Shown: positions 16,842 through 32,752 of the stretch, in pieces | How positions within the stretch are numbered: position 1 is the stretch's first letter | Layout of the letters: each line of letters starts with the position of its first letter | DNA from: a virus | Taxonomy: Duplodnaviria; Heunggongvirae; Uroviricota; Caudoviricetes | Length of the DNA stretch: 64,000 nucleotides | Reading direction: 5' to 3' (one strand) | Virus record (IMG/VR): IMGVR_UViG_3300033463_000001 | Coordinates: 211,298 to 275,297 of that record | The notes under the pieces: generated by a model | Databases searched by the model: none | Told to the model about the DNA's origin: nothing | What the model saw: only the letters and a program-made list of their open reading frames with translations | Program-made: the position numbers and the translations under genes

Positions 16842-16987
16842 ATTTAGGTTCGCAAGTTACAGCATTGGGTCATTGCAGACACAATGCGCTATATAATACA
16901 TAAGTGAACATTGACATATACAGCAAGAGGTTAAATTCTCGACGCAATGTAAGCCAGCATGCTGATACTTACGGGTTAGGCAGCGCG

Positions 16988-17059: not shown

Positions 17060-17189
17060 CGGCAACGCCGGTAACACCTGGTCGTCCTCACAGTATAATG
17101 CTAACAACGCGTGGTACTTGAATACGTCTGGGGCGTTGAACAACAACAACAAGAACAACAGTTACTCGGCGGTGGCCGTGTTCGAGCTA
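17060..17189 (+). repeat. DGR template region TR3 (orphan: no adjacent avd or RT)
   Basis: Intergenic, AAC-rich (aacaacaacaacaagaacaac) copy of VR3. Confidence 0.8.
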
Positions 17190-17192
17190 GGA

Positions 17193-17204
17193 ATGAAATG
17201 CTAA
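17193..17204 (+). pseudogene. vestigial RT start (ATG AAA TGC TAA) at the position where RT genes begin after TR1 and TR2
   Basis: In modules 1 and 3 an RT ATG lies 3-5 nt after the TR end. Here an ATG at the same offset is followed by a stop after 3 codons. Confidence 0.4.
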
Positions 17205-18556: not shown

Positions 18557-20128
18557 ATGTCAACACCTACAAAAATAGCTACTAGATTAAAATCAGCAAT
18601 AACCGGTGAAGAGTTCTTTATTGGAACTGTTGGTACTCAAGAAAAGGTTTCTGTATTATTGTCTGCACCTTCCAGTGTGGATTGGACACAATATTCCGTA
18701 GTAGTACAAAATATATCACAAACTGGTTCCCAGACTCTCAATTTAACATCTGAGGCATCTGGTGCAACAACCGTCGGTGTATGTGCTTTCAATATGCCAA
18801 TGGGCGTTATATACGAAGTGCAATTACCGACAATTACGGGATACGTATCTCCAATTAACCAGCGATTCTCAGCAACATCAGCAATGAGACAACTTATTCA
18901 TGAATACACAGCTGAAGGTGAGAAATTCGAACAAGTAACAATACTTGCATCCTTTGCATCTGCAGGAGGTACTGTTGCGTTATTGGAAAATATGACTGTT
19001 ACAGCGCTGTGCACCGATGGAACATCTTATTCAGGTATGTTTAATGCTAGTGGAATGTGTACTATTACCAATATCCCATATGGTAAAACATACACAATTC
19101 AATACCCGGATGTAATTAGTAGTGACGGGTCTATTCCATTTCATCATGACCGCAATAATGAACAGTTTACCGCCGGAGAACCATCAAGGATGCTTAATGT
19201 TACCTATTATGAGGGTATCATTGGTATTCATGGTGTTGACAGGTACGGAAACCTATTAAGTCTAGAAGAAATTGAATCTGGCATCACAAACGGAACGATA
19301 GTTGCTTCCGACATTATAGCAGGATATTACAATGATTCAAGGCTATCTCAGTCAACACGTGGTGATGGTTCAGGTATAGGTAATGCTGTTGTATGGAGTG
19401 TGTGGGATAATAAAATGCAAGGTTCCTGGATGAACCCGAATGGAAGCACTGTTAATGGCGTACCATTGAATAGCTCAGAAGGATATCACCTTGATAAATC
19501 GCGCTGTGCTGGAAAATATTATACGTTGCTAATCTCAGACTACGCAACAAGTAATAGCTATGCTTCAATCATTAAAGACTGTACCGCGCGAACTATAAGA
19601 GCACAAAAACTTTATGCTGTATATAACGATATTGTATATCGCCAAGTAGAATATAGTGACAATCAATGGAAATCTGTAACAGAGACCCCTGTTATTGTTT
19701 ATACTCATGATTCTATTACAAACCTTAACGGTGTAACAGGCGTGACTTTCTATAGCACTGCGCAAGGCGCAACTGATGAAGATAGTAGCGATATCGCATT
19801 TACTGCTGATGTTTTGAACTCTGCCGCAACAAAGAATGGTTTTACGGGTTCATACGCACAGATGAAAGGAATGGCAGACAACTGGGCTAATAACACAACC
19901 AATCCAGGTGCTTATACGGCGTACAGACTCTACAAAGCTTTAGGCATTGAGACTAAGATTACATCTGCTTCCAGCAACGCGACGTCTCACAACATCCGTA
20001 ACGGCTACTGGTGGACGTCTTGTCAGGCCAGTTCGACTTATGGAGTCTTACTGCTTAGTGGCTCCTTCGACATCGGCAACAAGTACTACGGTAGCTCTGT
20101 GTTGGTTTTGTTCGACCCTTTTGAATAA
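18557..20128 (+). CDS. DGR target protein 2 with C-terminal variable region
   Basis: 523 aa. C-terminus ...GYWWTSCQASSTYGVLLLSGSFDIGNKYYGSSVLVLFDPFE corresponds to TR2 (GNWWTSCQNSSTNGVKLNSGSFNNNNKNNSNSVLVLFEP). Confidence 0.8.
   Translation: MSTPTKIATRLKSAITGEEFFIGTVGTQEKVSVLLSAPSSVDWTQYSVVVQNISQTGSQTLNLTSEASGATTVGVCAFNMPMGVIYEVQLPTITGYVSPINQRFSATSAMRQLIHEYTAEGEKFEQVTILASFASAGGTVALLENMTVTALCTDGTSYSGMFNASGMCTITNIPYGKTYTIQYPDVISSDGSIPFHHDRNNEQFTAGEPSRMLNVTYYEGIIGIHGVDRYGNLLSLEEIESGITNGTIVASDIIAGYYNDSRLSQSTRGDGSGIGNAVVWSVWDNKMQGSWMNPNGSTVNGVPLNSSEGYHLDKSRCAGKYYTLLISDYATSNSYASIIKDCTARTIRAQKLYAVYNDIVYRQVEYSDNQWKSVTETPVIVYTHDSITNLNGVTGVTFYSTAQGATDEDSSDIAFTADVLNSAATKNGFTGSYAQMKGMADNWANNTTNPGAYTAYRLYKALGIETKITSASSNATSHNIRNGYWWTSCQASSTYGVLLLSGSFDIGNKYYGSSVLVLFDPFE
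20003..20119 (+). repeat. DGR variable region VR2
   Basis: 117 nt versus 20652-20768. About 20 mismatches, all at TR adenines, plus a terminal G/C. Confidence 0.85.
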
Positions 20129-20587: not shown

Positions 20588-20651
20588 TAGGGTGGCTATC
20601 TACTTTCTCCAGAAATGGGAAGTTAAGAATAAGATAATGATAGCGACATAC
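20588..20651 (+). other. conserved TR leader element (copy 3)
   Basis: AGGGTGGCTATCTACTTTCTCCAGAAATGGGAAGTTAAGAATAAGATAATGATAG; same architecture as the TR1 and TR3 leaders. Confidence 0.45.
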
Positions 20652-20768
20652 GGCAACTGGTGGACGTCTTGTCAGAACAGTTCGACTAATGGAGTCAAAC
20701 TGAATAGTGGCTCCTTCAACAACAACAACAAGAACAACAGTAACTCTGTGTTGGTTTTGTTCGAGCCT
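20652..20768 (+). repeat. DGR template region TR2
   Basis: AAC-rich copy of VR2 ending 4 nt before the RT2 ATG. The ORF-track 'protein' 20592..20780 is just its translation. Confidence 0.85.
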
Positions 20769-20772
20769 AAAT

Positions 20773-21996
20773 ATGAGTGAGTGGTGTACAATAGAAGAAG
20801 TATATGCTGCCTATCTTGACTGTAAAAAGCACAAAACAAGGTCTAGTTCATACGCAGAATTTGCTGCTAACGAAGCAATAAATTTGTATGAATTATGGCT
20901 TGATTTGAATAATCATACCTATAAAATTGGTTTAAGTGACGCATTTTGTGTTACACGGCCAAAAGTTAGGGAAGTATTCGCTGCTAGGTTTCGCGACCGT
21001 ATAGTTCACCATTTGGTGATTATGCGATTGTTGCCTATATTTGAACAACATTTTATTGAAGATACGTATAATTGCCGAAAAGGGAAGGGTACGGATTACG
21101 GAATTAATCGTGTATTGAATTTTACTAAAAACCACCCAAATGGTTGGATATTAAAGTATGATATAAGTTGTTTTTTCATGAGTATTAACAAAACTTTGTT
21201 AAACTCAATGCTGAAAACATTTATTTGCGATAATTATAGTAGGGATGACAAAGACGAGATTTTATCTTTGGTAGAAATGATTGTCATGCATCGCCCTGAA
21301 TTGCTTTGTATAAGGAAAGGTGATTTAAGCTTATGGAATCAATTACAAAAAGGAAAATCTTTATTTCGCAGCGACGGAAATCACGGCCTTGCAATTGGCA
21401 ACCTTACAAGCCAGATATTTGCGAATTTCTACATGTCGCAAATAGATAAATGGCTAGCAAGTATTGATGGTGTAGAATATGGAAGGTATGTTGATGATGC
21501 AATTTTAGTATCTGACGATAAAAATTTATTACTATCTATACTCCCCAAACTGCGTGAGCGATTAAGCGTTGAGCTTGATTTAGAACTACATAAAAAGAAA
21601 ATATACATACAACCAGTCAGGCATGGCGTTTCGTTTTTAGGGAGCGTAATTAAGAATGGGCGTTTATATGCAGGAAATCATACAGTTACAAATGCATTTA
21701 ATATAACGAAAGAGTTTGCGTGTAGGTTAGATAAGGAGAGTTGCGTTGAAAAATTTGCACAGCGATACAATTCTTATATGGGATATCTAATACATCGTAA
21801 AACATACGCAATCCGATGGAATCTATGGAATAATGTAGATGAAGAAACAAAAAAGTTTGTATACTTAACAAAACGCATGGGTTTAATGCGTGTAAGGGAT
21901 GTGTACAAAGAGAAAACTAAGCTAAAAAGTCAATATAAACATGATAAAAGAAACATTAGCAATAAACGACTGGGAGGAGTTGTCAAAGGCTTTTAA
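20773..21996 (+). CDS. DGR-type reverse transcriptase 2
   Basis: Start moved to ATG 20773 (MSEWCTIEEV), downstream of TR2. Motifs IGNLTSQIFANFYM and YGRYVDDAILV. About 50% identical to RT1 by eye. Confidence 0.9.
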   Translation: MSEWCTIEEVYAAYLDCKKHKTRSSSYAEFAANEAINLYELWLDLNNHTYKIGLSDAFCVTRPKVREVFAARFRDRIVHHLVIMRLLPIFEQHFIEDTYNCRKGKGTDYGINRVLNFTKNHPNGWILKYDISCFFMSINKTLLNSMLKTFICDNYSRDDKDEILSLVEMIVMHRPELLCIRKGDLSLWNQLQKGKSLFRSDGNHGLAIGNLTSQIFANFYMSQIDKWLASIDGVEYGRYVDDAILVSDDKNLLLSILPKLRERLSVELDLELHKKKIYIQPVRHGVSFLGSVIKNGRLYAGNHTVTNAFNITKEFACRLDKESCVEKFAQRYNSYMGYLIHRKTYAIRWNLWNNVDEETKKFVYLTKRMGLMRVRDVYKEKTKLKSQYKHDKRNISNKRLGGVVKGF

Positions 21997-22621: not shown

Positions 22622-23008
22622 TTAGTACACAACCTCTTCGCAGTTGTATCCCTGTTTCCTAATCCAGTCAGCAACGAGATGCCTATGACAGAAGTCGCCT
22701 GGTTTCTCGTAGCACAAGAGCGTTAATTCATCAAGCGCTACGCCATCGGAACCGTAGAATTCATTCAAATCGAACAGGACGTTGAGTATATCCAATTTCG
22801 ATAACACCTCATTGTTAAACCTGCGTGTATACAGTTCCGTGTCTCCTTTTTCAACTCCACCATTTTTGTAAGCATTCAAGATGCTATATGTCGGTGCTAG
22901 CTTCTTATATTCAGGTTTTCCTAGTGCTGTGTACCACACAGGTGCTTTCGCTGCGATAGAGACGGGATATTTGATTTGTTTTAACTTTGCAAAATAACTG
23001 GTTTTCAT
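22622..23008 (-). CDS. DUF488-family protein
   Basis: 128 aa with the conserved ...EKPGDFCHRHLVADWI... block typical of DUF488. Last gene of the NAD operon. Confidence 0.5.
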   Translation of the reverse strand: MKTSYFAKLKQIKYPVSIAAKAPVWYTALGKPEYKKLAPTYSILNAYKNGGVEKGDTELYTRRFNNEVLSKLDILNVLFDLNEFYGSDGVALDELTLLCYEKPGDFCHRHLVADWIRKQGYNCEEVVY

Positions 23009-23754
23009 AGTCCATAGAGTTTATGTTCATGCATGTACCTGAGCGACTCCTTGTAGTTTGGCAACCACTGTTGTAAATTTTTCTTATTTACATCAAACTG
23101 TATGCTTGCGTTAGGAATGCTTCCGATACATCTCCTCAGTTCTGTTGACGATATCTCCTGGATGTTGATATTCTCAGCGTAGATGCAGTTGTCATTCAGC
23201 AAGCGCCTATCAACCTCGTATCCTTTGCGTGGGATGATGATTATCTTAACAATGCCGGAGTTCAATAACCAGTTGTAGTCCTTGAACTTTTCTATACTAT
23301 TAAAGCTATCAACACCCATCACAAAGTAATACTGGTTCTCATTGAAGACGTTCTCACAGACGATGCGCTTCAATGTATCAACAGTATATGCACATTGCGC
23401 GGTGCCGAAGTGAACAATCTCGTAAGGACTTATAACAATTTTATCCTTGAACCAGTCACGAATGAACTGAGGGTACTCCGGATTTAATGTCATTTGTTTT
23501 AGTGCAATGTCACACAACTTGCACCGGTGGTATGCATCAACAGTTTCTGAGTTACCTGTCTTGAACGGACTACACGGAGAAGGGAGGACATAAACCTTTT
23601 GCACAAGGACAGGATTCTCACGTTGCCCATCCCCAAGCAATGCCATTACCGTCTGTACGTGCCCAGCATGGATAGGATTGAATGAACCACCGTATATGGC
23701 GATTTTCGTACACCTATCCACACCTGGATGCATTAAGCCGTCAACTTCCAACAT
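23005..23754 (-). CDS. nadD: nicotinate/nicotinamide-mononucleotide adenylyltransferase
   Basis: GGSFNPIHAGH (HxGH nucleotidyltransferase motif), ...SPYEI..., FVMGVDSF and ISSTELR blocks match the NadD pattern. Confidence 0.8.
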   Translation of the reverse strand: MLEVDGLMHPGVDRCTKIAIYGGSFNPIHAGHVQTVMALLGDGQRENPVLVQKVYVLPSPCSPFKTGNSETVDAYHRCKLCDIALKQMTLNPEYPQFIRDWFKDKIVISPYEIVHFGTAQCAYTVDTLKRIVCENVFNENQYYFVMGVDSFNSIEKFKDYNWLLNSGIVKIIIIPRKGYEVDRRLLNDNCIYAENINIQEISSTELRRCIGSIPNASIQFDVNKKNLQQWLPNYKESLRYMHEHKLYGL

Positions 23755-23756
23755 AG

Positions 23757-24287
23757 TTAGTCAATATGTAGTTGGCGTGCCATGAACGGAACATGTTTGT
23801 AGAACATCTCCGGAATCAACTCTTCGTGGCCGAAAGCCCAGTCGTATGAATCTCTATCACCGAACGGAACCCATTTAATGCCTGCAATCTCGTCCACCTC
23901 AGAGTTCGTGTCGTTGAAGGTGAAATCACTTGTTACCTTATCGTTGATAACGGTTACATAACGCAGTGTGACATTCTGGTCTTTCTTCTTACTGAAGGAT
24001 ATCGAGTCAAATACCATCTGTTCTGGCTTCAACCCAACGCCTGTCTCCTCGAAGATTTCGCGAACAACTGCCTCGTTGCCATTCTCATCGAAGTCCAGGA
24101 ATCCGCACGGTGCGTTCCACTTGAAGTTCTCATCGGGACAACCGGCACCACGCTGATTAGCAAGCACGCACCATGTACCATCTTTGTCACGACAGAAAAC
24201 GAATCCTACAACTGCTACTGAACGACTACGCCAGTATGTCTGCCCGTCCACTTCGAACGGGAAATTTTTCATTATTCTCTCACCCAT
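23757..24287 (-). CDS. Nudix hydrolase (candidate ADP-ribose/NAD(H) pyrophosphatase)
   Basis: Perfect Nudix box GFLDFDENGNEAVVREIFEETGV (Gx5Ex7REUxEExGU). Confidence 0.8.
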   Translation of the reverse strand: MGERIMKNFPFEVDGQTYWRSRSVAVVGFVFCRDKDGTWCVLANQRGAGCPDENFKWNAPCGFLDFDENGNEAVVREIFEETGVGLKPEQMVFDSISFSKKKDQNVTLRYVTVINDKVTSDFTFNDTNSEVDEIAGIKWVPFGDRDSYDWAFGHEELIPEMFYKHVPFMARQLHID

Positions 24288-24288
24288 A

Positions 24289-25446
24289 CTATTGCTTAAT
24301 ATCTAATTCTTTCATCGCAACCTCCAACTCCTCAGGAAGACCCATCATCTTTCCCTTATCGTCGGAAATCTTCACACAATAGTTCCACTTCCAACCTCTG
24401 AACTGGCAGCGATTTAACTTCATAACGATGTTCATAGGCTTGTAACCGGTATCGTTTGTTAAATTTGTTCCGATGCCGGCGCTACACATGATTTTTCCAC
24501 TGCAGTACTCAGCAATCTCCTTGTACTTTGGGAAATCCAGCGCATTCGAGAAAACAATCGTCTTCGTTGTCGGGTCAATGCCATAGCTCTTGTAGAAGGC
24601 AACAACCTTATCAACGAATTCATACTCGTCACCGCTATCCTGGCGCACACCGTCGAACAGCTTTGCCTGCTTCAGCGTGAAGTTATTCAGGAAAGCATCC
24701 AATCCCCACGTATCGGTCAGTGCGATGCCAAGGTCACCGTCATAGGTGCGTACCCAGTTCTCGTATGCCTCGAAGTTGGCGTTGCGATAGCCGTACAGTG
24801 CACCGTGCATCATTATCCATTCGTGAGCAACAGTACCGATTGGCTTCATATCATATTTCCATGCCAGATGTACATTTGATGTACCAACACAATAGGCTGC
24901 GTAGTCTTTCAAGTACTCAACCACCATATCCTGTACCTCGTAACTGAAGCGACGGCGTGTTCCAAACTCAGAGAAGAGGAGGTTGTTGGTATTGGAGAGC
25001 ATAACCTTTGCCTCCAGGCGGCTCATCACTTCTTGCTTGTCAAGCTTGTTGTGATGGTTGCATGCCTCAGAAACGATTGCGAGGATGGGAACTTCGTACA
25101 GCGTGGCCTTGTACATGAGGTCTGTAACGGAGATATGAAGATGGCGCTGCTCGTCAACCCACAGGTCGATTTTATCTGACTCGAAACGGAATCCGGATAG
25201 CCACTCCCAGTAGAAAGCAGGGATGTACGGCATTTTCTCGATTGCCCATTCCTTCATATCCGGGGACATGGAAACCTTTTCCAGGTCGAACATCGCCATT
25301 TTAATGCGTGCAACCGTAGCGGCGTCGTACTCAGTATTATTGCGGTCGTTAAACACAAACTCACCCACCACATTAGGGAAGAGTTTCATATAAGCGTAGC
25401 CCATGCTAAACTTATACAAGTCATTATCAAGAAGGCTTTGAATCAT
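24289..25446 (-). CDS. pncB: nicotinate phosphoribosyltransferase family enzyme (PncB-like; NadV/Namat-like not excluded)
   Basis: N-terminal LLDNDLYKFSMGYAY (compare PncB LLDTDAYKLHM) and FGTRRR motif. Start moved to the MIQSLL Met (ORF track 25554 gives an N-extension). Confidence 0.75.
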   Translation of the reverse strand: MIQSLLDNDLYKFSMGYAYMKLFPNVVGEFVFNDRNNTEYDAATVARIKMAMFDLEKVSMSPDMKEWAIEKMPYIPAFYWEWLSGFRFESDKIDLWVDEQRHLHISVTDLMYKATLYEVPILAIVSEACNHHNKLDKQEVMSRLEAKVMLSNTNNLLFSEFGTRRRFSYEVQDMVVEYLKDYAAYCVGTSNVHLAWKYDMKPIGTVAHEWIMMHGALYGYRNANFEAYENWVRTYDGDLGIALTDTWGLDAFLNNFTLKQAKLFDGVRQDSGDEYEFVDKVVAFYKSYGIDPTTKTIVFSNALDFPKYKEIAEYCSGKIMCSAGIGTNLTNDTGYKPMNIVMKLNRCQFRGWKWNYCVKISDDKGKMMGLPEELEVAMKELDIKQ

Positions 25447-25711
25447 GTAAATAAAGTTGTTTAAAGTTTTCGTTATATTCTGCAATCTCCTTTTCGAGAC
25501 GTGCAATGCGTTCATCGCTGTATCCGGATATATCGTATACCTGACGGTCACCAATCACTTCGTCAACTGGCATGTAGAGCACTTTAACGGTATCATCAAA
25601 CTCAGAAGATATATGCTTGATGACATGTTCTACAAACTCAGGAACGTCGCCACGGTTAACGCCACCGATGTAAATCTGGATAACGATAATGCGTTTTTCT
25701 TTATCAGTCAT
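25427..25711 (-). CDS. hypothetical protein (94 aa)
   Basis: Compact ORF coupled to neighbours inside the operon; acidic C-terminus; no motif recognised. Confidence 0.45.
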   Translation of the reverse strand: MTDKEKRIIVIQIYIGGVNRGDVPEFVEHVIKHISSEFDDTVKVLYMPVDEVIGDRQVYDISGYSDERIARLEKEIAEYNENFKQLYLHDSKPS

Positions 25712-26540
25712 CGTTACAAATGATTAATGAATCAACAAAGGCACGGCCAGCACCGGTAAGGATAGGCATTTCAGTATCTACATACCATTGCGTGCGGACA
25801 GTCTCCTCACCGTGCTGGTTAGTAAACGATACACCCCTCTTGATGCATGCAGAACCACGCTTCTGCGGAATTGGTAGGTCATTCCAGTTAATACCTTTCT
25901 CCGTGAAGAGCTTATCTTGCAGCTTATTGCAGTTCAAGCCGAACATCTCCTTGTGTGAGAAATGTGCCTGTGCCAATGCCTGAATAGAGTTGCGTGTTGC
26001 ATCTTGCTGGCGCCAGAGGATATTATTGGTTACATCCTCTTTCGGAACATTGAACGCGCGACAGTCGAAGATGGCACCATCCAGTGTTACACGGTCATAT
26101 GCGTTATATACCTTGCGGAAATTATCCGTAGTAACGGTCAGGTCAACCACTTCTTTGGAACAGATGGCCATATTTGCTACGAAGTACGAGTTAAAGGCCT
26201 TGGTTGCCATGGATGCAGCAACGGAGCACATTTTCTGTACTTCATTATCGAACCATGCAGATGAGTTGAGTTTCTTGTAGTCTACAAGGATAAGCGTTAT
26301 CTCATCCGACTGTGTATAGCCGAATACACAACCTTGTATATGCTCACAGAGATACTTCATGGTATCCTGCATGGTTTTCATCATGACCGGGTCAAACGGT
26401 TTGATAAAGCCACGGGTTGTCGTGTGGAAGTGACACCCGTCGAGACGCAGAATAACCGGCATACGAGGAACAAGAGACGTCTTGCTGACCGCCTCGTACT
26501 TCTTCATTCTATCGCCGAGTGAATCGTTTTTGTTTGCCAT
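25704..26540 (-). CDS. tRNA-His guanylyltransferase (Thg1)-like 3'-5' nucleotidyltransferase
   Basis: VILRLDGCHFH...KPFD...GYTQSDEITLIL and ...LWRQQD... align with Thg1 family signatures (RLDGRNFH, AYGQSDE, SWRQAD). Confidence 0.75.
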   Translation of the reverse strand: MANKNDSLGDRMKKYEAVSKTSLVPRMPVILRLDGCHFHTTTRGFIKPFDPVMMKTMQDTMKYLCEHIQGCVFGYTQSDEITLILVDYKKLNSSAWFDNEVQKMCSVAASMATKAFNSYFVANMAICSKEVVDLTVTTDNFRKVYNAYDRVTLDGAIFDCRAFNVPKEDVTNNILWRQQDATRNSIQALAQAHFSHKEMFGLNCNKLQDKLFTEKGINWNDLPIPQKRGSACIKRGVSFTNQHGEETVRTQWYVDTEMPILTGAGRAFVDSLIICNDD

Positions 26541-26566
26541 AGTTGTAATAGTTTTTCAAATTCGCC

Positions 26567-26617
26567 CACAAAGATATGTAAAATTTTTGATATATACAAA
26601 TCCTGTGGACGAATTTT
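26567..26617 (-). promoter_or_regulatory. Bacteroidota-type promoter (TTTG-N20-TATCTTTG) within a 50 nt conserved repeat, copy 1 of 3
   Basis: Minus-strand read: AAAATTCGTCCACAGGATTTG-tatatatcaaaaattttaca-TATCTTTG, 22 nt before the Thg1 start. Near-identical copies at 44485-44535 and 51899-51949. Confidence 0.6.
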
Positions 26618-26619
26618 CA

Positions 26620-27198
26620 TTACTCTGCAGCAGCTGCGGCGCGTTTTGCCTTCTTTTCGGCAATCTTCGCCAGCTGTGCTGCCTTACGTTCTGCGCGCTC
26701 TTTCTCTTTTGCTTCGCGACGAGTTTTGAGGTAGGCTTGTTTCTTCTCGCGCTTTTCTGCACGAGCCTTCTCGTCGGCTTCCTCCTGTTTTTTCTTCTGC
26801 TCCTCTGCTTTCTCAATTCGCTCTTTGCGCTTTGCAGCGAAGTCCTTGAAGTTCTGAATTTGCTCGTCAACAATCTCACGCAGGAAGACCTTGCCTTCAT
26901 CCGTTCCGTTGAGGAATGTAATGAATCCGCGTACTGCAGAACTGAGCGTGCTGGTCTTGTTCTCACATGCAGCAACCTCTTGTTCGAGAGAGCTCTTGGA
27001 ATTCATAATTCGTTCAACAAGAAGAGAAACTTCTTTGCGGAAACTGTAGGTAAGCGTCATCTTGGTATAGTAATGACTATACTCTTCCGGCGTCATTCCG
27101 TTGTGTTCTTTCTTGAAACGCTCCAGCGCCTCTTGGGATAACTGTTGAACATCGTCCAACGTCTCCATGGTGTTACCGTTTACACTTTTAATTGCCAT
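26620..27198 (-). CDS. hypothetical protein with Lys/Glu/Ala-rich coiled-coil tail
   Basis: 192 aa; C-terminal 70 aa low-complexity KEKRAE repeats. Confidence 0.5.
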   Translation of the reverse strand: MAIKSVNGNTMETLDDVQQLSQEALERFKKEHNGMTPEEYSHYYTKMTLTYSFRKEVSLLVERIMNSKSSLEQEVAACENKTSTLSSAVRGFITFLNGTDEGKVFLREIVDEQIQNFKDFAAKRKERIEKAEEQKKKQEEADEKARAEKREKKQAYLKTRREAKEKERAERKAAQLAKIAEKKAKRAAAAAE

Positions 27199-27211
27199 GT
27201 GTTCTCATTTG

Positions 27212-27400
27212 TTAATCGTCAATTACCTGCCAATCCTCGCGGTTAACGAACTTGTCAAACCACGGGCTGTTATCAATGGTACCTTCTTTTGTGCGTACGT
27301 AGAACAGATTATCATCGCCTACGAACCACCAGCCTTCCCACTCTGGGAGCTTAATCTTTTTGCCACTATATGCTGCGGCCAGCGCTAATCTAAAGTTCAT
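27212..27400 (-). CDS. small hypothetical protein (62 aa)
   Basis: Compact ORF between the coiled-coil gene and prs on the same strand. Confidence 0.4.
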   Translation of the reverse strand: MNFRLALAAAYSGKKIKLPEWEGWWFVGDDNLFYVRTKEGTIDNSPWFDKFVNREDWQVIDD

Positions 27401-27412
27401 ATCCTTTATTGT

Positions 27413-28309
27413 TTATACATTTGCGATTACATGTACCTTCGGATTCTTACCTGTGTAGATGCTATCCGTTGTGTAGATACCGGACAGTTCACCAACCAAC
27501 AGAGCGTCGAGAAGTTTTGTGTTCTCTGGGTGTGCATCTTTGTCTATGTAGCTGTTCTCAAGGTGTGTGCAGTATGCGAAGATATTCTTGAAACCACACT
27601 CACGCAGTTCCGATGCGCTCAGCACAACTGTTTCTCCCGTAGAGATAATATCATCGATGATGAGAGCTACCTTGTTTGCGAAGTACTCCGGCGTTGTGAT
27701 ACCTTCTGTGCCACGATGCTGGTGTAACCCGAACTCAACAATCTCCCTGGTATCGAAGTTTCGCAGTTTCTTACCGTAGAATACCGTAGATGCCAACTCA
27801 GTATCATTTGCGATATCCTTGTAGCGCTCCATGGCACCCATATCCGGGAAACAGAGTACGACGTCTCGATTGATGTAGGTCTTAATACCTTCAATTACCT
27901 TGCGGATGTATGTGTCAGGCGACATGACCTGAACGTTGTTAATCAACTCGCATGCCTTTGCAGAGTGAGGGTCAAGGAAATAAACCTTGGTGAAATGTAG
28001 TGAGTTAATGACATCAGCGAAATGCTTCAGTGTAAATACCTGCTTCTCATCCTCAACACGGTCGAGTCGTGCGTTCGGCATGTACGGCACTGTAAGCGTG
28101 ATTTGCGGGCAGCGCTTATCCATGTTTTTAAACGTGTCACGGATGTGTTTAACGAGATAGATGATTGTGATTAGTTCACCTTCGTTTTCGTACGTCCAGT
28201 GAATATCCTGAACACCATGGTAGCGCACTGCAACGTTGAACATCTTCAGTGTTCCGTCGGCAAAGTGTTCGTTGCCGACAACTAATTCTCCATTATAAAG
28301 TGTTATCAT
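27413..28309 (-). CDS. prs: ribose-phosphate pyrophosphokinase family enzyme (PRPP synthetase or ADPR-PP synthetase-like)
   Basis: VPYMPNARLDR (compare IPYFGYARQDR), FLDPHS (DLH), VALIIDDIISTGETV (PRPP-binding loop), NIFAYCTHL. Divergent from housekeeping Prs. Confidence 0.75.
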   Translation of the reverse strand: MITLYNGELVVGNEHFADGTLKMFNVAVRYHGVQDIHWTYENEGELITIIYLVKHIRDTFKNMDKRCPQITLTVPYMPNARLDRVEDEKQVFTLKHFADVINSLHFTKVYFLDPHSAKACELINNVQVMSPDTYIRKVIEGIKTYINRDVVLCFPDMGAMERYKDIANDTELASTVFYGKKLRNFDTREIVEFGLHQHRGTEGITTPEYFANKVALIIDDIISTGETVVLSASELRECGFKNIFAYCTHLENSYIDKDAHPENTKLLDALLVGELSGIYTTDSIYTGKNPKVHVIANV

Positions 28310-29061
28310 ACTGTTTGTGTTGTGTACATTGTGTTAGGTTGTAACGAATTTGGTTCGCTTACAGGCTCTTTGTATTTCTCTGCCTTTTTGAAGTCTTCGT
28401 TGAACTCGATGTAAGCTGCTTTCCATTTGTCGAACTCTTCTTGAGTGATAGGGTAGATAGCGTACTTGTCAGCCATGTACATGAATCCTGCCTCGCCGGC
28501 CATGCACTTATCGTCACCTTCTTTCAACGGGTGTCCGATGAAGATGTGGCCAAGGTGTGCTTCGTGGAAGCTTGCAATACAATTAATTTCCTCATCCGGA
28601 CGGAACGAACGTGTGAATACAAATCTGTTTACAGTTCCGGCGTATTGTTTATTGAGTCCGAATGCAACCAAGTAAGCCTCGTTTTCTTCTTTGTATGCGT
28701 GGCCACCAATCTTGACGAGCTTCTTCGCATCTTCGTTTCCGATGATATATTCAACGAAATATTCAGCCTCTACCGTAGAAACAGTAGCCGTTGGAATGTC
28801 GATACCGTTCACCTCAGTGATTGTTTCAATCTTGAGTTTATAGATATCGTTTTCTACATCGTGCTCCACTTCAAGAACCTTATCGAACAAGCGCATGCAC
28901 GCGCCGTTTTGGAACTTGTTGGTGTGGAATACCGTACCAGGCACAACTGCCTCACAGAATTTCTGAACGAGCTTACCCTGCTTGTAGAGTGCAATTAACT
29001 CACGTGCCATGAATATCAACATGATAACAATGGCTACAATAAAGACAATCTTTACAGTCAT
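28306..29061 (-). CDS. hypothetical membrane-anchored protein
   Basis: 251 aa; N-terminal hydrophobic helix (IVFIVAIVIMLIFMA); start overlaps the pncA stop. Confidence 0.5.
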   Translation of the reverse strand: MTVKIVFIVAIVIMLIFMARELIALYKQGKLVQKFCEAVVPGTVFHTNKFQNGACMRLFDKVLEVEHDVENDIYKLKIETITEVNGIDIPTATVSTVEAEYFVEYIIGNEDAKKLVKIGGHAYKEENEAYLVAFGLNKQYAGTVNRFVFTRSFRPDEEINCIASFHEAHLGHIFIGHPLKEGDDKCMAGEAGFMYMADKYAIYPITQEEFDKWKAAYIEFNEDFKKAEKYKEPVSEPNSLQPNTMYTTQTV

Positions 29062-29657
29062 ACAGCATCTGATTTAATGACTTTAATCTGGCAACTTTTC
29101 ATCACGTCCAGCGCCTCTGCGTGTTTCTCCGGTGTTGTTCCAGCACTCAGGTCTTCAATGACACGAATAACAGCGTCAGGATAGGTTGCGCGCAGGATAA
29201 GTGCATTGCTTACAACACAAATATCGGTACATACACCCATTATATCAATCACGTATCCTTCTCCGGCGAAATCATCATTGTTTTTCCTGATAGGGATAAT
29301 GTCGAGCAGGTCATACATCCAGTGTATGTTGCCGAAGGTGTTTTTCTCAATACGACGGCATGACAGTTCGCTGAACTTATCTGCTACCTCGTTAATCTGA
29401 TGATTTAACGCATGACCCCACGAACCCTTGATGCAGTGCTCAACCGGCAGGTTTATACCTTCCAACGTCTCAAGATAGTTTTTCTCGTGCGTATCGAGAG
29501 TGAAAACGGTCATCTCGTAGTCCTTGTGTGTGCGTTCCAGGAAATCAGCCATCTTCTCTACAATGGCAACCGTATCCTTATTTGCGAGTGTTCCGGTCTG
29601 TGAACAGAAGTCGTTTTGCATGTCAACGACAACCAGTAAATGTTTTGATTTAGACAT
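29058..29657 (-). CDS. pncA: nicotinamidase (isochorismatase family)
   Basis: LLVVVDMQNDFC, DTH, PVEHCIKGSWGHAL, IEK, MGVCTDICV match the PncA catalytic Asp/Lys/Cys and metal-binding positions. Confidence 0.8.
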   Translation of the reverse strand: MSKSKHLLVVVDMQNDFCSQTGTLANKDTVAIVEKMADFLERTHKDYEMTVFTLDTHEKNYLETLEGINLPVEHCIKGSWGHALNHQINEVADKFSELSCRRIEKNTFGNIHWMYDLLDIIPIRKNNDDFAGEGYVIDIMGVCTDICVVSNALILRATYPDAVIRVIEDLSAGTTPEKHAEALDVMKSCQIKVIKSDAV

Positions 29658-29669
29658 ATGCGTGCTGTG

Positions 29670-30542
29670 TTATCCGATGTTATACGAAGGAGCCAGTTCT
29701 GGTACCAATGAATCATTTACAGAGAAAAGGTAACGACCGTCACATAAAGTCGGCGTATCCTCTGTTTCAAATACAGTGTTATCCATGTCATACAAGAGTC
29801 CGGGAGCCGGTTGGAACATTGGAACAGGCATCAGCTTGAACAGGTTCTTGTTGTGACGATTGGTGATATTTTCAAGGTCTGTCTGCGATGCGCATTCGCC
29901 TGTACGGATATACTTATCAAGTGTTGCGTAGGTAAAACCGAACTTCTCTTCATCCGTAGCGCCAACGAGTCCATCAGCTGGAGCTTTCTCGATAAAGCGC
30001 TTATCAAGGCCGAGTTCATAGCCGATTTCCTTCACCTCACTTGCTGTTAGGAGTGCGAACGGCATTACGTCACCAACGGAGTCTCCCCAACGGGTCATCC
30101 ATCCAACCCAATCCTCAGAGTAGTTACTGGTGTTCACAACGCGGCCATTGCAAGACTGAGCCACTGCATATAGTACAGACATACGCAATCTCGGAGGCAA
30201 GTTCCACTTTGTCTGGTCAGTGATAGAGATGCCTGCGTCATCAATTCCTGCGAGGATGGCGTCGTATGCGCAACGTATATTAACCGTTACGTTCTGTATT
30301 CCAAGCGTTTTACACAGGTCTTGCGATACGTTAATGTCAGATTGTACACCATTCGGAATGAGAACACCGAGAACATTCTCCTTACCGATAGCAGCACAGC
30401 ACAACGCGGCCATGATACTTGAATCCTTGCCACCAGAGATACCGATGACGAGTTTACAACCTTTTGCGTTGGCCTCGTACCATGTAATCAGGAACCTCTT
30501 GAGTGATTCACATGTTTCTTTTCGATTGAAATTATAATTCAT
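29670..30542 (-). CDS. nadE: NH3-dependent NAD+ synthetase
   Basis: PP-loop VIGISGGKDSS plus LIPNGVQ, TVNI and C-terminal KAP.DGL...DE..FGFTY blocks align with NadE. Confidence 0.85.
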   Translation of the reverse strand: MNYNFNRKETCESLKRFLITWYEANAKGCKLVIGISGGKDSSIMAALCCAAIGKENVLGVLIPNGVQSDINVSQDLCKTLGIQNVTVNIRCAYDAILAGIDDAGISITDQTKWNLPPRLRMSVLYAVAQSCNGRVVNTSNYSEDWVGWMTRWGDSVGDVMPFALLTASEVKEIGYELGLDKRFIEKAPADGLVGATDEEKFGFTYATLDKYIRTGECASQTDLENITNRHNKNLFKLMPVPMFQPAPGLLYDMDNTVFETEDTPTLCDGRYLFSVNDSLVPELAPSYNIG

Positions 30543-30585: not shown

Positions 30586-31167
30586 TTAGGAATCTTGACT
30601 CTTTTCTACGTACAATTTGCAACAACAACGGTTCTTTGTACGATATCCCTCACATGGACAATGTAAATCTCCGTCATTCTCCGGGTGTTTGCACGGACAG
30701 TTGCCATCACAGCGTTGGATTCCCTTATAGATACCCTTTCGAACTGCTATATTGTCAGTCAGCTTAAATCCGTCCAACTCAGTGACAGGAACTAGGTACG
30801 TCGGTGCCTGTAGTTCAACGCGCTCTCCGTTTGGCTTATAGATGATGAACGCGAATGAGTAGCCATCCGTCTCGAAACCACGTATATCTCCGTACTCACC
30901 ATCCGGAAGTAGGTAGTCGCGACGTGTGTCTGCTTCATTTATGACGGTGTCAATCCACTCTTGCGCTCCTGCCGGAAGGTACTTGTTGTCGTTGATGAAT
31001 AAACCTTGTGCGTATGCCAGTTCCATCTGGTAGAAGAGCCTGCGCTCAGTGATATACTCTCCGCGAAGATACGGTTGCTCAATACGCAGGATAACCTTGT
31101 TGCCTTTACCGTATTTGCGCATCAGTTTCTTGAATATGCGTGCGTCTTTAGTAATATATGTTTTCAT
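30586..31167 (-). CDS. hypothetical protein with Cys-rich C-terminus
   Basis: 193 aa; C-terminal CDGNCPCKHPENDGDLHCPCEGYRTKNRCCC cluster suggests metal binding. Confidence 0.5.
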   Translation of the reverse strand: MKTYITKDARIFKKLMRKYGKGNKVILRIEQPYLRGEYITERRLFYQMELAYAQGLFINDNKYLPAGAQEWIDTVINEADTRRDYLLPDGEYGDIRGFETDGYSFAFIIYKPNGERVELQAPTYLVPVTELDGFKLTDNIAVRKGIYKGIQRCDGNCPCKHPENDGDLHCPCEGYRTKNRCCCKLYVEKSQDS

Positions 31168-31243: not shown

Positions 31244-32752
31244 TTACTTACCCTGTTGTCCCAGGTCAACACTTGCCGTTGCAACAGTAGAGTTGTCTTG
31301 CATGATTCGACTCAGGTCAACGCCGGTAGCTTCTTTAACGACGTCCATGGTCTGTTTCATCAGCACTGGGACGTTCCCAGAAAGTCCGGAAACCTCATTA
31401 CCGGTTGTTCCATAGACACGTACATCACCAATCTGACTCAGCGGGCTTGCAACCTTCTCGGCAACCTCAGGAAGAACGTGTACCATCATCTCTGCAAGTG
31501 CTGCAGGACCGTATTTCTTGAATGCCTCAGCCTTCTTGTCCATTGCGGCTGCTTCTGCCTCACCTTTAGCCTTGATGGCTGCGGCTTCTGCCTTACCGAC
31601 AGCCTCGATACCGGCTGCTTTCTGTTGTTGAGCGAAGAGGTCTGCCTCTGCCTTTGCCTTGATGGCGCGTGCTTGTTGCTCTGCCTCGTATGCTTCGGCC
31701 TCGGCTTTACGCTTGCGTTGCTCCAGTTCAGCTGCTGCGGCTTGCTCTTTCTGATACTTCTCAGCATCGGCTTGCTTGTTAACCTTTGCAGCGAGGGTCT
31801 TCTCCTGGATGGCAATCTCTTGCTCTTTGAGCTGTTGCTGTTGTTTTGCCTTCTCAACCTCTGCCTCAACGGCCTTGCGGTTAATAAGGAGTTGCTGCTC
31901 CTGAATACGAATCTCCTTTGCGGTAGAAGCCTCAACCGTCTTGACGTTAATGTCCTTTGCTTGCTCTTGTTTCTGAATCTCATAAGCTGCGTCAGCGATA
32001 GCCTTTTGTTTATCGGCCTTGCTTTTCAACTCAGACTGTTTGATGGACAGTTCAGTGTTCTTCTCGGCAATCTGCGTCTCTGCCTCAACGCGTGCATCGT
32101 TAGCCTCTTTCTGTGCAAGTGCTTTTGCAATAGCAACGTCGCGCTCTGCGTTAGCCTTGTTGATGGATGCATCTTTTGTAATCCTGCATGTGTTGTCAGC
32201 ACCGAGGGCGTAGATGAGACCGTCGTTGTCCTTAATGGTTTGAATGTTGCAAGAGATAATCTTGATACCCAGTTCTGTCATGTCCGGAGCTGCCTTTGCC
32301 TGAATCTGGTTAGAGAATCCGTCACGGTCAGTGTTCAACGAGCGTAGGTCTTGCGTACCGATAATCTCACGCATGTTACCTTGCAAGGAGTCACGAATTT
32401 CCTCTGCGATTTCCTCACGCGACTTATTAAGGAAGTTTGCAGCGGCAATGTCAATACAGTCACGGTCAATACTTACTTTGGCAACTGCGTCGACGTCAAC
32501 ATTGATAAAGTCGGATGTCGGAACGGGTGTACCTGTTTTGATGTCAACAGACAATTGTCCGAGATAGAGGGTATCAACACGATGCAATCCAGGGATACGG
32601 AATCCACCGGTACCAGTTAAATACCTCGGCTTTTTCAACGGCCAACCAGATACAACCAACGCTTTGTTTGGTCCAACTTTCACATAGCAGACTGCGAAGA
32701 ATAGCATCGCCAGTCCAAGCACTACAAGTGCAATAATTAATCCAGTACTCAT
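31244..32752 (-). CDS. flotillin-like SPFH/band-7 membrane protein
   Basis: 502 aa. N-terminal TM helix, SPFH-like core, then a >150 aa Ala/Glu/Lys/Gln coiled coil (EAEVEKAKQQQQLKEQE...), the classic flotillin (FloT/YqiK) architecture. Confidence 0.7.
   Translation of the reverse strand: MSTGLIIALVVLGLAMLFFAVCYVKVGPNKALVVSGWPLKKPRYLTGTGGFRIPGLHRVDTLYLGQLSVDIKTGTPVPTSDFINVDVDAVAKVSIDRDCIDIAAANFLNKSREEIAEEIRDSLQGNMREIIGTQDLRSLNTDRDGFSNQIQAKAAPDMTELGIKIISCNIQTIKDNDGLIYALGADNTCRITKDASINKANAERDVAIAKALAQKEANDARVEAETQIAEKNTELSIKQSELKSKADKQKAIADAAYEIQKQEQAKDINVKTVEASTAKEIRIQEQQLLINRKAVEAEVEKAKQQQQLKEQEIAIQEKTLAAKVNKQADAEKYQKEQAAAAELEQRKRKAEAEAYEAEQQARAIKAKAEADLFAQQQKAAGIEAVGKAEAAAIKAKGEAEAAAMDKKAEAFKKYGPAALAEMMVHVLPEVAEKVASPLSQIGDVRVYGTTGNEVSGLSGNVPVLMKQTMDVVKEATGVDLSRIMQDNSTVATASVDLGQQGK

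Follow-up and report, generated by a model that had tools for sequence, protein, structure and literature searches.

The window analysed here, a stretch of 64,000 nucleotides, carries on its minus strand a row of 12 ORFs (positions 22622-30542, Table 1) that includes six genes assigned to NAD+ metabolism. All 12 are present in the order given by the first-pass annotation, and the tight packing it described agrees with both the coordinates and the junction lengths; five of the 11 junctions are overlaps (-4, -20, -8, -4, and -4 nt), and the other six are gaps, one of 79 nt and the rest of 1-13 nt. Pfam-level family assignments stand for all eight named genes. The NAD genes are interrupted, or the row is ended, by six genes of unknown or unrelated function, and a search for promoter and terminator signals along the row found none above chance that would define one operon. 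An identical gene row is seen in a 327,292-bp JGI metagenome contig and in two independent Logan assemblies, so that an assembly accident is excluded, and the gene cluster is real and coherent. The window is identified as phage DNA from the genes it holds, among them a Peptidase_S74 tail fibre, two reverse transcriptases paired with DGR-like repeats, proteins with PHROG matches, and a majority of ORFans. The host-like PncB, the lack of a PHROG match for most window ORFs, and the lack of any match to the window DNA in INPHARED or IMG/VR searches might instead indicate an island of bacterial or plasmid origin, or chimerism in the assembly. Such an origin is very improbable, however, given that the arrangement recurs across three assemblies made independently, of which one spans 327 kb, and given the phage markers listed above together with phage-family Thg1 and Adps-like genes, the absence of tRNA genes from the window, and the homologous modules that adjoin phage replication genes in IMG/VR contigs.

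Table 1. Features of the minus-strand gene row, in order of descending position.
Feature	Length (aa)	Position	Strand	Supporting matches or remarks
NadE, NH3-dependent NAD+ synthetase	290	29670..30542	-	PF02540 157 bits
PncA-like nicotinamidase	199	29058..29657	-	PF00857 65 bits
ORFan, one N-terminal hydrophobic segment	251	28306..29061	-	junctions -4/-4 nt
Adps-family pyrophosphokinase	298	27413..28309	-	phrog_619 182 bits
ORF	62	27212..27400	-	no family match; conserved only on same-contig copies
Lys/Glu-rich ORF	192	26620..27198	-	no family match
Thg1-like 3'-5' nucleotidyltransferase	278	25704..26540	-	PF04446 103 bits; phrog_4717 288 bits
ORF	94	25427..25711	-	no family match
PncB, nicotinate phosphoribosyltransferase	385	24289..25446	-	NF003704, TIGR01514, 2IM5
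Nudix hydrolase	176	23757..24287	-	intact Nudix box
NadD-like nicotinate-mononucleotide adenylyltransferase	249	23005..23754	-	PF01467 47 bits
DUF488 protein	128	22622..23008	-	PF22751 41 bits; phrog_2450 98 bits

Family matches and catalytic motifs bear out the earlier proposal that a complete PncA-PncB-NadD-NadE route is encoded. Although PncA, at 26.8 bits, falls short of the 174 bits set for the NCBIfam PncA equivalog, its closest PDB matches include the nicotinamidases 2H0R, 3PL1, and 1IM5, and alignment reveals that the nicotinamidase triad (D12/K105/C147) and metal ligands (D55/H57/H74) are conserved, in agreement with the initial assignment. NadE scores 158 bits against the TIGR00552 cut-off of 63.7, contains an SGGKDS P-loop, has 3FIU (109 bits) and 2E18 (108 bits) as its top PDB matches, and is 41-57% identical to the NadE of related phage cassettes. 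For NadD, 11 of the 13 NCBIfam matches, including all of the best, are to NadD or NMN adenylyltransferase models, but every match falls under its cut-off (the best being 85 vs 315 and 82.6 vs 112.5); the motifs GGSFNPIHAGH and ISSTELR are present, and the top PDB matches are the NadD structures 2H29, 8AIH, and 1KAM.

PncB, for which the start is taken as ATG (the mechanical ORF extends to a TTG at 25554), lies above the NCBIfam cut-offs of both NF003704 (417 vs 379 bits) and TIGR01514 (393 vs 269.6 bits), and matches P. gingivalis NAPRTase (2IM5) with 356 bits. The histidine of its GTVAHEW motif is invariant. Identity to Phocaeicola PncB is 58-59%, and sequence comparison clearly points to descent from Bacteroidales. 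By contrast, the match to the phage Nampt/Namat family phrog_448 is only 56 bits. The possibility that this protein is a Namat was rejected on the basis of the equivalog cut-offs passed and the NAPRTase match, so that its first description as PncB-like stands; with 58% identity to cellular PncB and these cut-offs passed, PRPP is the expected substrate.

The Nudix box is intact (G62-x5-E68-x7-R76-E77-x2-E80-E81-x-G83), and the protein falls far under NCBIfam equivalog cut-offs. A profile of its family matches best NrtR (2FML, 3GZ5/6/8) and the NadM-Nudix protein 2QJT, and a C-terminal AF(D/N)H motif is common to all three groups, even though the discrimination is modest (E 1e-10 vs 1e-8 for other clades). 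Proximity to the ADP-ribose-binding NrtR/NadM-Nudix clade is consistent with the earlier suggestion that the enzyme acts on ADP-ribose, and it is probably an ADP-ribose pyrophosphatase yielding AMP and ribose-5-P.

The first-pass annotation also proposed a Prs enzyme converting ribose-5-P to PRPP, and this claim has to be revised. The kinase fails the Prs cut-off TIGR01251 (88 vs 113 bits), and its best PDB Prs match is only 44 bits. It is 21% identical to E. coli Prs, 30% to classical Adps (32% to that of SPbetaL1), and about 40% to a gut-phage subclade; it has neither the N-terminal helix nor the C-terminal helices of Prs, and it contains the Adps-type motifs FTLK, K-x-R-N-F-x-T-x-x-I, DDIIS, TH-x-EN, and YTTDS. 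Assignment as a canonical PRPP synthetase is therefore rejected, the protein lying within the phage Adps-like family, the catalytic residues of which are intact. Depending on specificity, the kinase would pyrophosphorylate ribose-5-P to PRPP or ADP-ribose to ADPR-PP. The characterised SPbetaL1 Adps makes ADPR-PP and is inactive as a Prs (Osterman et al. 2024), which makes the step from ribose-5-P to PRPP uncertain. On the other hand, the PP loop (DDIISTGET) has the Thr of canonical Prs where Namat-partnered kinases have Y, F, K, R, or G, and no Thr-type kinase has a Namat-like gene beside it.

The Thg1-like protein is probably a tRNA-repair passenger outside the NAD pathway; such genes also adjoin related NAD modules in three other loci (L044, L068, and L256). 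A 4-nt overlap at its stop codon joins nadD to the DUF488 gene, and in L046, L083, and L084 a DUF488 gene is found at a distance of 6-7 kb from a related cassette. The 251-aa ORFan has no match in Pfam, NCBIfam, or PHROG and occurs only on copies of the same contig.

The gene set recurs in other viral contigs. Among 82 IMG/VR loci anchored on PncB, 77 contain PncA, 74 NadE, 67 NadD, and 66 the same Nudix subfamily; PncA, NadD, NadE, and Nudix are found together in 62, and this association persists after dereplication. Two of the 82 loci (L158 and L159), on viral contigs unrelated to the window, also include the kinase and so have the same six genes contiguously, a recurrence that chance co-location would not produce. 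Genes for phage DNA polymerase, thymidylate synthase, RtcB, and endonuclease VII flank the PncB loci. A sister cassette, PncA-Adps-like-Namat-like-NadE, is widespread in gut phages and is present in some bacteria, in one chromosome behind the NAD regulator NrtR. The nicotinamide-specificity Asp of its Namat-like protein is always Ser or Ala (D215S/A), whereas classical NARP1 loci keep this Asp and never contain PncA or NadE; the presence of these two genes matches the loss of this nicotinamide-binding residue exactly. In the related phage L094, a weak Acb2/Tad1-hairpin match comes after NadE, which hints at an anti-defence setting there.

It is unlikely, in light of these patterns, that at least one of the enzymes does something else and that the genes do not form one pathway. 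PncA might be an isochorismatase-fold protein acting on another amide or ester, the NadD-like enzyme might adenylylate a different substrate, and the Nudix protein might remove NAD caps from RNA or destroy an immune signal; the scores of PncA, NadD, and Nudix far under equivalog cut-offs, the modest Nudix discrimination, and the tRNA-repair genes mixed into the row are all compatible with this idea. The metal ligands and triad retained in PncA are nicotinamidase-specific, however, PncA and NadE track the loss of Asp exactly in the sister cassette, and the co-occurrence of five genes in 62 of 82 loci is hard to explain without a shared pathway.

The sister cassette and the window are both built around PncA and NadE, which implies nicotinate intermediates. 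For PncA, kinase, and NadE, identity between the two is 38-57%, and the window kinase nests within the Adps-like clade of the sister cassette. The latter has a Nampt-fold transferase without NadD or Nudix, while the window carries PncB, NadD, and Nudix in its place: 79 Namat-like plus Adps-like modules in a scan for Prs-like proteins carry PncA and NadE but none has NadD or Nudix, as opposed to about 80% of PncB modules. This distribution fits the view that only a PRPP-dependent transferase would call for NadD and Nudix. The PncA-Adps-like-Namat-like (D215S/A)-NadE cassette was not located in the literature searched, and these comparisons point to an undescribed family of deamidated NAD+ reconstitution pathways of which the window would be the PncB-based form. 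In evolutionary terms, PncA, kinase, and NadE of the window are similar to those of the sister cassette, and a host-like PncB, along with NadD and Nudix, takes the place of the Namat-like transferase.

From the observed gene content, family membership, intact catalytic motifs, and recurrence in other phages, we infer a pathway, including the substrate of each enzyme and the succession of the steps. PncA would convert nicotinamide to nicotinate and NH3, while the Nudix enzyme and the kinase would jointly convert ADP-ribose to PRPP. PncB would join nicotinate and PRPP to give NaMN, NadD would use ATP to add AMP and form NaAD, and amidation by NadE would turn NaAD into NAD+ (or NaMN into NMN), possibly with NH3 from PncA. 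For the second step, either Nudix yields ribose-5-P from which the kinase makes PRPP, or the kinase makes ADPR-PP that Nudix trims to PRPP and AMP. We slightly favour the Nudix-first order, but it needs a change in specificity, SPbetaL1 Adps making no PRPP, and one loop residue is all that backs such a change. A true Adps in the window, with ADPR-PP either trimmed by Nudix or used directly by PncB with nicotinate to give NaAD (NadD and Nudix then being accessory), is a possible but less probable arrangement. It would account for the Adps-like character of the kinase, its nesting among Namat-like-partnered kinases, and its family-wide catalytic residues; moreover, NudC, which is also a Nudix enzyme, cleaves ADPR-PP to PRPP in vitro. 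Against it are the expected use of PRPP by PncB, the Prs-type Thr seen in no Namat-partnered kinase, and the presence of Nudix and NadD with PncB in about 80% of phage loci lacking the kinase, which implies no dependence on ADPR-PP.

We consider it reasonably probable that the row is a phage-borne, self-sufficient deamidated module that returns nicotinamide and ADP-ribose, the products of NAD+ glycohydrolysis, to NAD+. By analogy, the most likely benefit is that NAD+ is kept up during infection of a Bacteroidota host, and this benefit would be greatest once NADase defences of the TIR, SIR2, or a similar type are triggered, as for NARP1 and NARP2. A more tentative explanation is that the module boosts NAD+ in a jumbo phage, or complements a host without salvage, and has no special link to NADase immunity, the needs being those of NAD-dependent ligase, dehydrogenases, and the phage's own ADP-ribosyltransferases. 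NAD-jumbo phages do encode many NAD-consuming enzymes, and their pathways often complement those of the host (PMC11662467); the sister cassette behind NrtR resembles ordinary homeostasis, and PncB modules of related viral loci sit amid replication and nucleotide-metabolism genes. Yet no NAD-consuming enzymes were seen among the scanned window ORFs, de novo genes are absent from the module, and its substrates, nicotinamide and by inference ADP-ribose, are products of glycohydrolysis rather than of ligase turnover. The analogous two-gene pathways are proven counter-defences, and the weak Tad1/Acb2-like match adjoining NadE in the related phage also argues for the counter-defence reading.

The first-pass description of this route as a distinct third solution does not hold, because NARP3 is already defined as PnuC plus NadR, which imports nicotinamide riboside, and because Preiss-Handler clusters in jumbo phages were published in 2024. 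NARP2 (e.g. KVP40 NadV/NatV) and NARP3 likewise represent phage-encoded multi-step NAD+ synthesis; both lack PncA, PncB, and NadE, and NARP2 proceeds through the amidated intermediate NMN with host PRPP. In KVP40 NatV, too, an adenylyltransferase is coupled to a Nudix domain; the Nudix of the window resembles NadM-Nudix domains. NARP1 (Adps plus Namat) and NARP2 (Nampt plus Nmnat) are experimentally proven counter-defences (Osterman et al. 2024). NARP1 shares with the proposed pathway a start from ADP-ribose and nicotinamide and a kinase of the same phage Prs-like family, but the window contains no Namat-like ORF, having instead a cellular-type, nicotinate-specific PncB, a deamidated route that needs PncA, NadD, and NadE, and a kinase with the Prs-like Thr. 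Bacterial Preiss-Handler salvage, often controlled by NrtR as in nrtR-pncA-pncB-nadD-nadE operons (Rodionov et al. 2008), employs the same four enzymes and chemistry; in the window a phage carries them, in a single row that also includes a phage-type kinase and a Nudix resembling ADPR pyrophosphatases but not the regulator. The closest precedent is the catalogue of pncB-nadD-nadE clusters in gut NAD-jumbo phages, for which it was suggested that phage-made NAD+ offsets NAD+-depleting defence and, in addition, supplies phage NAD-dependent enzymes (Li et al., Microbiome 2024, PMC11662467). These phages resemble that of the window in genome size (>200 kb), animal-gut or rumen-type metagenomes, a Bacteroidota-type host signal, and clustered pncB, nadD, and nadE. 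The catalogue is at KEGG level, however, and PRPP and the ADP-ribose arm (Nudix and Prs/Adps-like) are absent from its discussion, whereas in the window the row is extended by PncA, Nudix, and an Adps-family kinase.

The twelve consecutive minus-strand ORFs between 22622 and 30542 occur in the order listed in the first-pass annotation, which had read them as a complete nicotinate-dependent route to NAD+ that also recycles ADP-ribose. This reading largely holds, in that the row is real and its enzymes can be assigned, but one of them had been placed in the wrong subfamily. Of the eleven junctions, five are overlaps (-4, -20, -8, -4 and -4 nt); the other six are gaps, 1-13 nt long in five cases and 79 nt in the remaining one. 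Counts from sigma-70 promoter and intrinsic terminator scans do not exceed shuffled expectation, Bacteroidota promoters being outside the coverage of the tool, so the transcription unit is not definable from such scans.

The PncB of the row passes two curated NCBIfam cut-offs (TIGR01514, 393 bits against 269.6; NF003704, 417 against 379), scores 356 bits against the P. gingivalis NAPRTase structure 2IM5, and carries the invariant catalytic-histidine position (H208 in GTVAHEW). Identity to Phocaeicola PncB is 58-59%, and the match to the phage Nampt/Namat family phrog_448 is weak (56 bits). These comparisons assign it as a genuine, host-derived nicotinate phosphoribosyltransferase (type I NAPRTase). 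The first-pass annotation had allowed that its PncB might be a Namat; this identity, like that of a Nampt, is ruled out by the NCBIfam cut-offs, the 2IM5 score, and the low score to phrog_448. NadE reaches 158 bits with TIGR00552 (cut-off 63.7) and has the SGGKDS loop, and its top PDB matches are NH3-dependent NadE structures from F. tularensis (3FIU, 109 bits) and P. horikoshii (108 bits). Because the best of these, 3FIU, is an NMN synthetase, NadE might amidate NaMN before adenylylation, with the NadD and NadE steps in reverse order. Nicotinamidases are among the best PDB matches of the isochorismatase-fold protein, PncA. Its triad (D12/K105/C147) and metal ligands (D55/H57/H74) align with those of P. 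horikoshii and M. tuberculosis PncA, the Asp/His/His metal site being the criterion that separates nicotinamidases from other isochorismatase-fold hydrolases, and it scores 26.8 bits with the NCBIfam PncA equivalog (cut-off 174). The NadD-like protein contains the HxGH and ISST motifs and finds NadD models and structures as its best NCBIfam and PDB matches, with scores below cut-off in every NCBIfam NadD model (best 85 against 315; 82.6 against 112.5); its preferred substrate may be NaMN or NMN. Finally, the Nudix box of the Nudix protein is intact. The best PDB matches of its phage-family profile are NrtR (2FML, 3GZ5/6/8) and the ADPR-pyrophosphatase domain of NadM-Nudix (2QJT), with E-values of 1e-10 to 2e-9 (other Nudix enzymes reach about 1e-8), and a C-terminal AF(D/N)H motif is common to the family, NrtR and NadM-Nudix. 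The protein lacks the Pro about 16 residues past the box that is a marker of ADPRases.

The misplaced enzyme is the one called 'Prs', referred to here as the kinase. It scores 88 bits with TIGR01251 (cut-off 113) and at best 44 bits with Prs structures in the PDB, against 182 bits with phrog_619; Adps structures are not among its PDB matches. Its relatives occur in 1,367 phage records, among them that of Bacillus phage SPbetaL1 (32% identity), whose homologue has been shown experimentally to pyrophosphorylate ADP-ribose and to have no Prs activity. Identity is 21% to E. coli Prs, about 30% to classical Adps, and 39-40% to a gut-phage subclade, inside which the kinase nests among Namat-partnered kinases in a tree with a single Prs outgroup. 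Alignment reveals derived traits common to the kinase and Adps, namely absence of the N-terminal helix and of the C-terminal helices, and the published Adps structure paper describes loss of the alpha11-alpha12 C-terminal region. The derived traits in common also include the motifs FTLK, DDxxS, TH-x-EN and YTTDS, and a K-x-R-N/D-F/W-x-T-x-x-I hairpin. The Prs class I features (DDxxDTGGT loop, KRR loop) are missing from the kinase, in which the PP loop reads DDIISTGET, where canonical Prs has DDMIDTGGT, and the hairpin reads K-L-R-N-F-D-T-R-E-I. On these alignments and profiles the 'Prs' of the row is classed as a probable Adps-family enzyme. The sixth PP-loop position is Tyr, Phe, Lys, Arg or Gly in all of the approximately 160 Namat-partnered kinases; it is Thr, Ser or Ala in the kinase subclade without a Namat-like neighbour, which comprises the window, the relatives P0019, P0044, P0014 and P0003, and the loci L158 and L007.

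The same row is present, identical, on a 327,292-bp JGI metagenome contig (3300028797, Ga0265301_10000011) and in two Logan assemblies. A megablast of the 7.9-kb region found nothing similar among INPHARED phages, and IMG/VR does not contain an exact 47-mer taken from the window. The remainder of the window is phage-like, with several PHROG families and otherwise ORFans; tRNA, capsid and terminase genes were not found within it. A tail fibre, the PHROG families, and two reverse transcriptases paired with DGR-like variable/template repeats support its assignment to a phage. Each repeat pair has one copy at the 3' end of a large ORF, and in two of the three pairs the second copy lies just upstream of, or overlaps, the start of a reverse transcriptase gene, amounting to two or three diversity-generating retroelements in a stretch of 10 kb. 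No Shine-Dalgarno-like motif was seen upstream of the 14 genes between 22622 and 32752, where upstream stretches are A/T-rich; this absence, together with the Phocaeicola-like PncB, points to a Bacteroidales host. Two of these 14 genes, co-directional with the rest of the row, lie upstream of NadE. The first encodes a protein that has no family match and whose C-terminus is rich in Cys (CDGNCPCKHPENDGDLHCPCEGYRTKNRCCCKLY), and the second a flotillin/SPFH protein, a homologue of which is also borne at the edge of L074. At the other end of the row stands a DUF488 gene; three loci with related cassettes (L046, L083, L084) have DUF488 genes 6-7 kb away, and a literature search on DUF488 function yielded nothing useful. 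Near the window end lies a DHH-family phosphoesterase, a family whose enzymes are frequent degraders of nucleotide signals or nanoRNA.

Positions of features in the window and in related loci (L-numbers, mostly IMG/VR viral)
Feature	Sequence	Positions	Remark
DUF488 gene	window	22622-23008	PF22751, 'active N3 subclade'; 4-nt overlap with nadD stop codon
PncB	window	24289-25446	
Kinase	window	27413-28309	
Nudix	window	23757-24287	
NadE	window	29670-30542	
193-aa protein	window	30586-31167	
Terminator-like hairpin	window	31208-31188	between 193-aa and flotillin/SPFH genes
Flotillin/SPFH protein	window	31244-32752	502 aa
DHH-family phosphoesterase	window	61713-62792	minus strand; phrog_4771, 87 bits
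Tail fibre	window	58251-60221	Peptidase_S74 chaperone domain
DGR-like repeat pair	window	11818-11943 / 12513-12638	94% identity
DGR-like repeat pair	window	16709-16843 / 17060-17194	90% identity
DGR-like repeat pair	window	20001-20119 / 20650-20768	86% identity
Large ORFs with repeat copy at 3' end	window	10640-11944, 15234-16841, 18557-20128	
Reverse transcriptases	window	12642-13877 and 20707-21996	
tRNA-repair-type gene	window	25704-26540	
tRNA-repair-type gene	L256	2488-3312	
tRNA-repair-type gene	L044, L068		
tRNA-repair-type gene	L158	3234-4469	
tRNA-repair-type gene	L094	6609-7169	
53-aa ORF	L094 (and L095)	13359-13520	directly after NadE
Calcineurin-like metallophosphoesterase gene	L099	8501-9193	Pfam-confirmed; directly upstream of PncA-like gene
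Namat-like transferase, Ser/Ala type	L093	10803-12278	
Namat-like transferase, Ser/Ala type	L003	13680-15158	
Metallophosphoesterase-like gene	L104	8535-9236	directly upstream of PncA-like gene

That the gene set might recur in other phages, a check proposed with the original reading, is borne out. A single-protein PncB query of IMG/VR found nothing and an alignment-based scan was needed; this gave 80 PncB loci, to which L094 and L095 were added from a protein look-up. Gene content, counted with iterated profiles, includes PncA in 77 of these 82 loci, NadE in 74, NadD in 67, the window's Nudix subfamily in 66, and the kinase in two. PncA, NadE, NadD and Nudix occur together in 62 of the 82, and one representative locus was confirmed by Pfam. 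All six window genes are found in L158 and L159, where NadE, PncA, kinase, PncB, Nudix, an unassigned gene and NadD are contiguous, without the window's inserted unknowns, and encode proteins 26-56% identical to those of the window. The window is thus a member of a widespread phage module, of which the kinase-bearing version is the rare one. Bacterial contamination as the source of the PncB-anchored IMG/VR loci is excluded by flanking genes for phage DNA polymerase, RtcB and endonuclease VII.

A leaner form (KptA-like, PncA, PncB, NadE) is seen in L094, a phage-like contig on which NadD, Nudix and kinase are not nearby. The small ORF that follows its NadE has a weak match to the Acb2/Tad1 hairpin family of anti-CBASS and anti-Thoeris sponges. 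Moreover, tRNA-repair-type genes (Thg1-like, RtcB ligase, KptA/Tpt1-like) recur beside NAD modules, and the two may form a broader repair or anti-defence island. In L256 a kinase of the Thr type is followed directly by a Thg1-like gene; two genes further along come an ADP-ribosylglycohydrolase and, next, an NT5C nucleotidase.

Relatives of the kinase mark a sister cassette of PncA-like protein, Adps-like kinase, Namat-like transferase and NadE. All four genes are present in 72 of 80 IMG/VR loci with kinase relatives, only NadE is missing in six more, and the cassette is kept in about 86 viral loci (L010-L089, L244-L255, L002, L003, L090-L093). On the Firmicutes-like chromosome L093 it lies directly behind an NrtR regulator, an arrangement reminiscent of the prs-nadV operons under NrtR control that were reported in 2008. 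In the SPbetaL1 Namat, Asp215 hydrogen-bonds nicotinamide, and its counterpart in human NAMPT, Asp219, has been described as the determinant of substrate specificity. In the cassette transferases, of which 58 are distinct, this position is invariably Ser or Ala, and Ala242 is replaced by Ser. As a control, the 80 IMG/VR loci closest to the SPbetaL1 Namat were pooled with the other loci. Neither PncA nor NadE occurs in any of the 74 loci with Asp at residue 215, against PncA in 86 and NadE in 82 of the 87 with Ser or Ala (both genes in 82, PncA alone in four, neither in one); the incomplete Ser/Ala loci may be truncated. When clustered at 70% identity, none of 40 Asp clusters has either gene and 12 of 13 Ser/Ala clusters have both; a small number of evolutionary events may lie behind this division. 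Since the presence of PncA and NadE follows the loss of Asp215, the Ser/Ala transferases probably use nicotinate, which PncA would supply, with NadE amidating the product.

NadD and Nudix occur in none of the 79 cassettes of the Prs-like scan, which speaks for a transferase product that requires no adenylylation and would be NaAD made from ADPR-PP. This step is one that we infer, because the Phass-1 protein retains the Namat adenine-clamp motif (GS-X-phi-X-phi-X-phi-TRD) but the other two cassette proteins aligned, those of L003 and L093, have an insertion that changes it. From sequence, the cassette is predicted to encode a nicotinate ADPR-transferase and to be a deamidated version of NARP1 (Adps + Namat). 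Within the literature searched, no paper ties Adps, Namat or NARP1 to nicotinamidase, NadE, NAD synthetase or deamido-NAD, and the Sorek-lab survey lists Macro-domain phosphatases as the only extra genes in NARP1 operons. Separately, L099 has a metallophosphoesterase gene beside its PncA-like gene, and L104 has a similar one, recognized by N-terminal sequence similarity to that of L099; this enzyme could provide another step in processing ADPR derivatives.

Namat-like proteins thus occur with the kinase and never with NadD or Nudix, whereas PncB occurs with NadD and Nudix and rarely with the kinase, a pattern that suggests two alternative uses of ADP-ribose. In one, ADP-ribose would be activated whole by Adps and passed to the transferase; in the other, Nudix would cut it to ribose-5-P, which would be rebuilt to PRPP, with NadD restoring the AMP moiety. 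The window holds both Nudix and kinase. We slightly favour the order in which ADP-ribose is converted to ribose-5-P and then to PRPP, because the Thr in the PP loop of the window's kinase resembles canonical Prs and differs from the Namat-partnered kinases. Formation of ADPR-PP by an Adps activity, followed by Nudix trimming, ranks below it as a rather less probable course, for which NudC trimming of ADPR-PP in vitro is a precedent. The net chemistry is identical for both orders, and all of these substrate assignments are ones that we infer.

Taken together, these patterns could reflect an undescribed family of deamidated NAD+ reconstitution pathways in gut phages with PncA and NadE as its constant core, a reading that we hold tentatively and at somewhat short of even confidence. 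In the common form, the Adps-like kinase would make ADPR-PP, the D215S/A Namat-like enzyme would join this to nicotinate to give NaAD, and NadE would complete the synthesis. In the window, the transferase would have been swapped for a host PncB, so that NadD and an ADPR-cleaving Nudix were recruited, and the Adps-family kinase would have shifted back towards PRPP.

NAD+ depletion is among the commonest effector strategies of bacterial immunity (Thoeris, DSR, SIR2-HerA, SEFIR, pAgo-SIR2), and by analogy a counter-defence role for the row is plausible; that it simply supplies NAD+ for the phage's own needs is a serious rival explanation. To our knowledge, three phage pathways for rebuilding NAD+ have been proven, every one proceeding via amidated intermediates, and a nicotinate route that also recycles ADP-ribose would, if true, be a fourth strategy. 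Such a route could escape defences or host enzymes acting on nicotinamide or NMN or, alternatively, match hosts that store their pyridine pool as nicotinate. It appears to be widespread among the gut phages of Bacteroidota and Firmicutes, a group with poor coverage in the E. coli and Bacillus collections behind NARP1-3, and it would bear on nicotinamide/nicotinate flux in the gut. In practical terms, Asp versus Ser/Ala at residue 215 would predict nicotinamide or nicotinate use, one kinase loop residue would predict ADP-ribose or ribose-5-P use, and the KEGG label 'ribose-phosphate pyrophosphokinase' in jumbo-phage catalogues needs re-reading.

Compared with known systems, the row agrees with the Preiss-Handler pathway in the family scores of PncB and NadE and the active-site residues of PncA; the NadD-like protein has the motifs and NadD best matches but scores below cut-off. 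In its defining features the window corresponds to none of NARP1, NARP2 (Nampt + Nmnat) and NARP3 (PnuC + NadR). Namat lies within about ten genes of the kinase in 97% of the Adps clade, but the 64-kb window has no Namat-like ORF (E<=0.01), its sole type II phosphoribosyltransferase being PncB; the kinase is nearer to Adps than to Prs, yet its PP-loop residue is unlike that of all Namat-partnered members. For NARP2, no Nampt- or Namat-like ORF is present in the window, and for NARP3, the PnuC and NadR families of Pfam and NCBIfam are unmatched by the row's 14 genes. The first-pass annotation had proposed a distinct third solution by phages, which overstates the novelty, as NARP3 was already named and the kind had been catalogued. 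Among the 174 gut 'NAD-jumbo phages' of Li et al. 2024 (PMC11662467), whose hosts are mostly Bacteroidota, a pncB-nadD-nadE cluster was described, and the authors suggested counter-defence as a role 'needing experimental verification'. The window is a member of this kind, defined by a genome above 200 kb and a full NAD+ salvage/Preiss-Handler route, with a contig of 327,292 bp and pncB, nadD, nadE and pncA. Three elements go unmentioned by Li et al. 2024 and are new here: the arm that starts from ADP-ribose, the family placement of the 'Prs', and the link to a PncA/NadE-bearing variant of NARP1 whose transferase has lost the nicotinamide-binding Asp.
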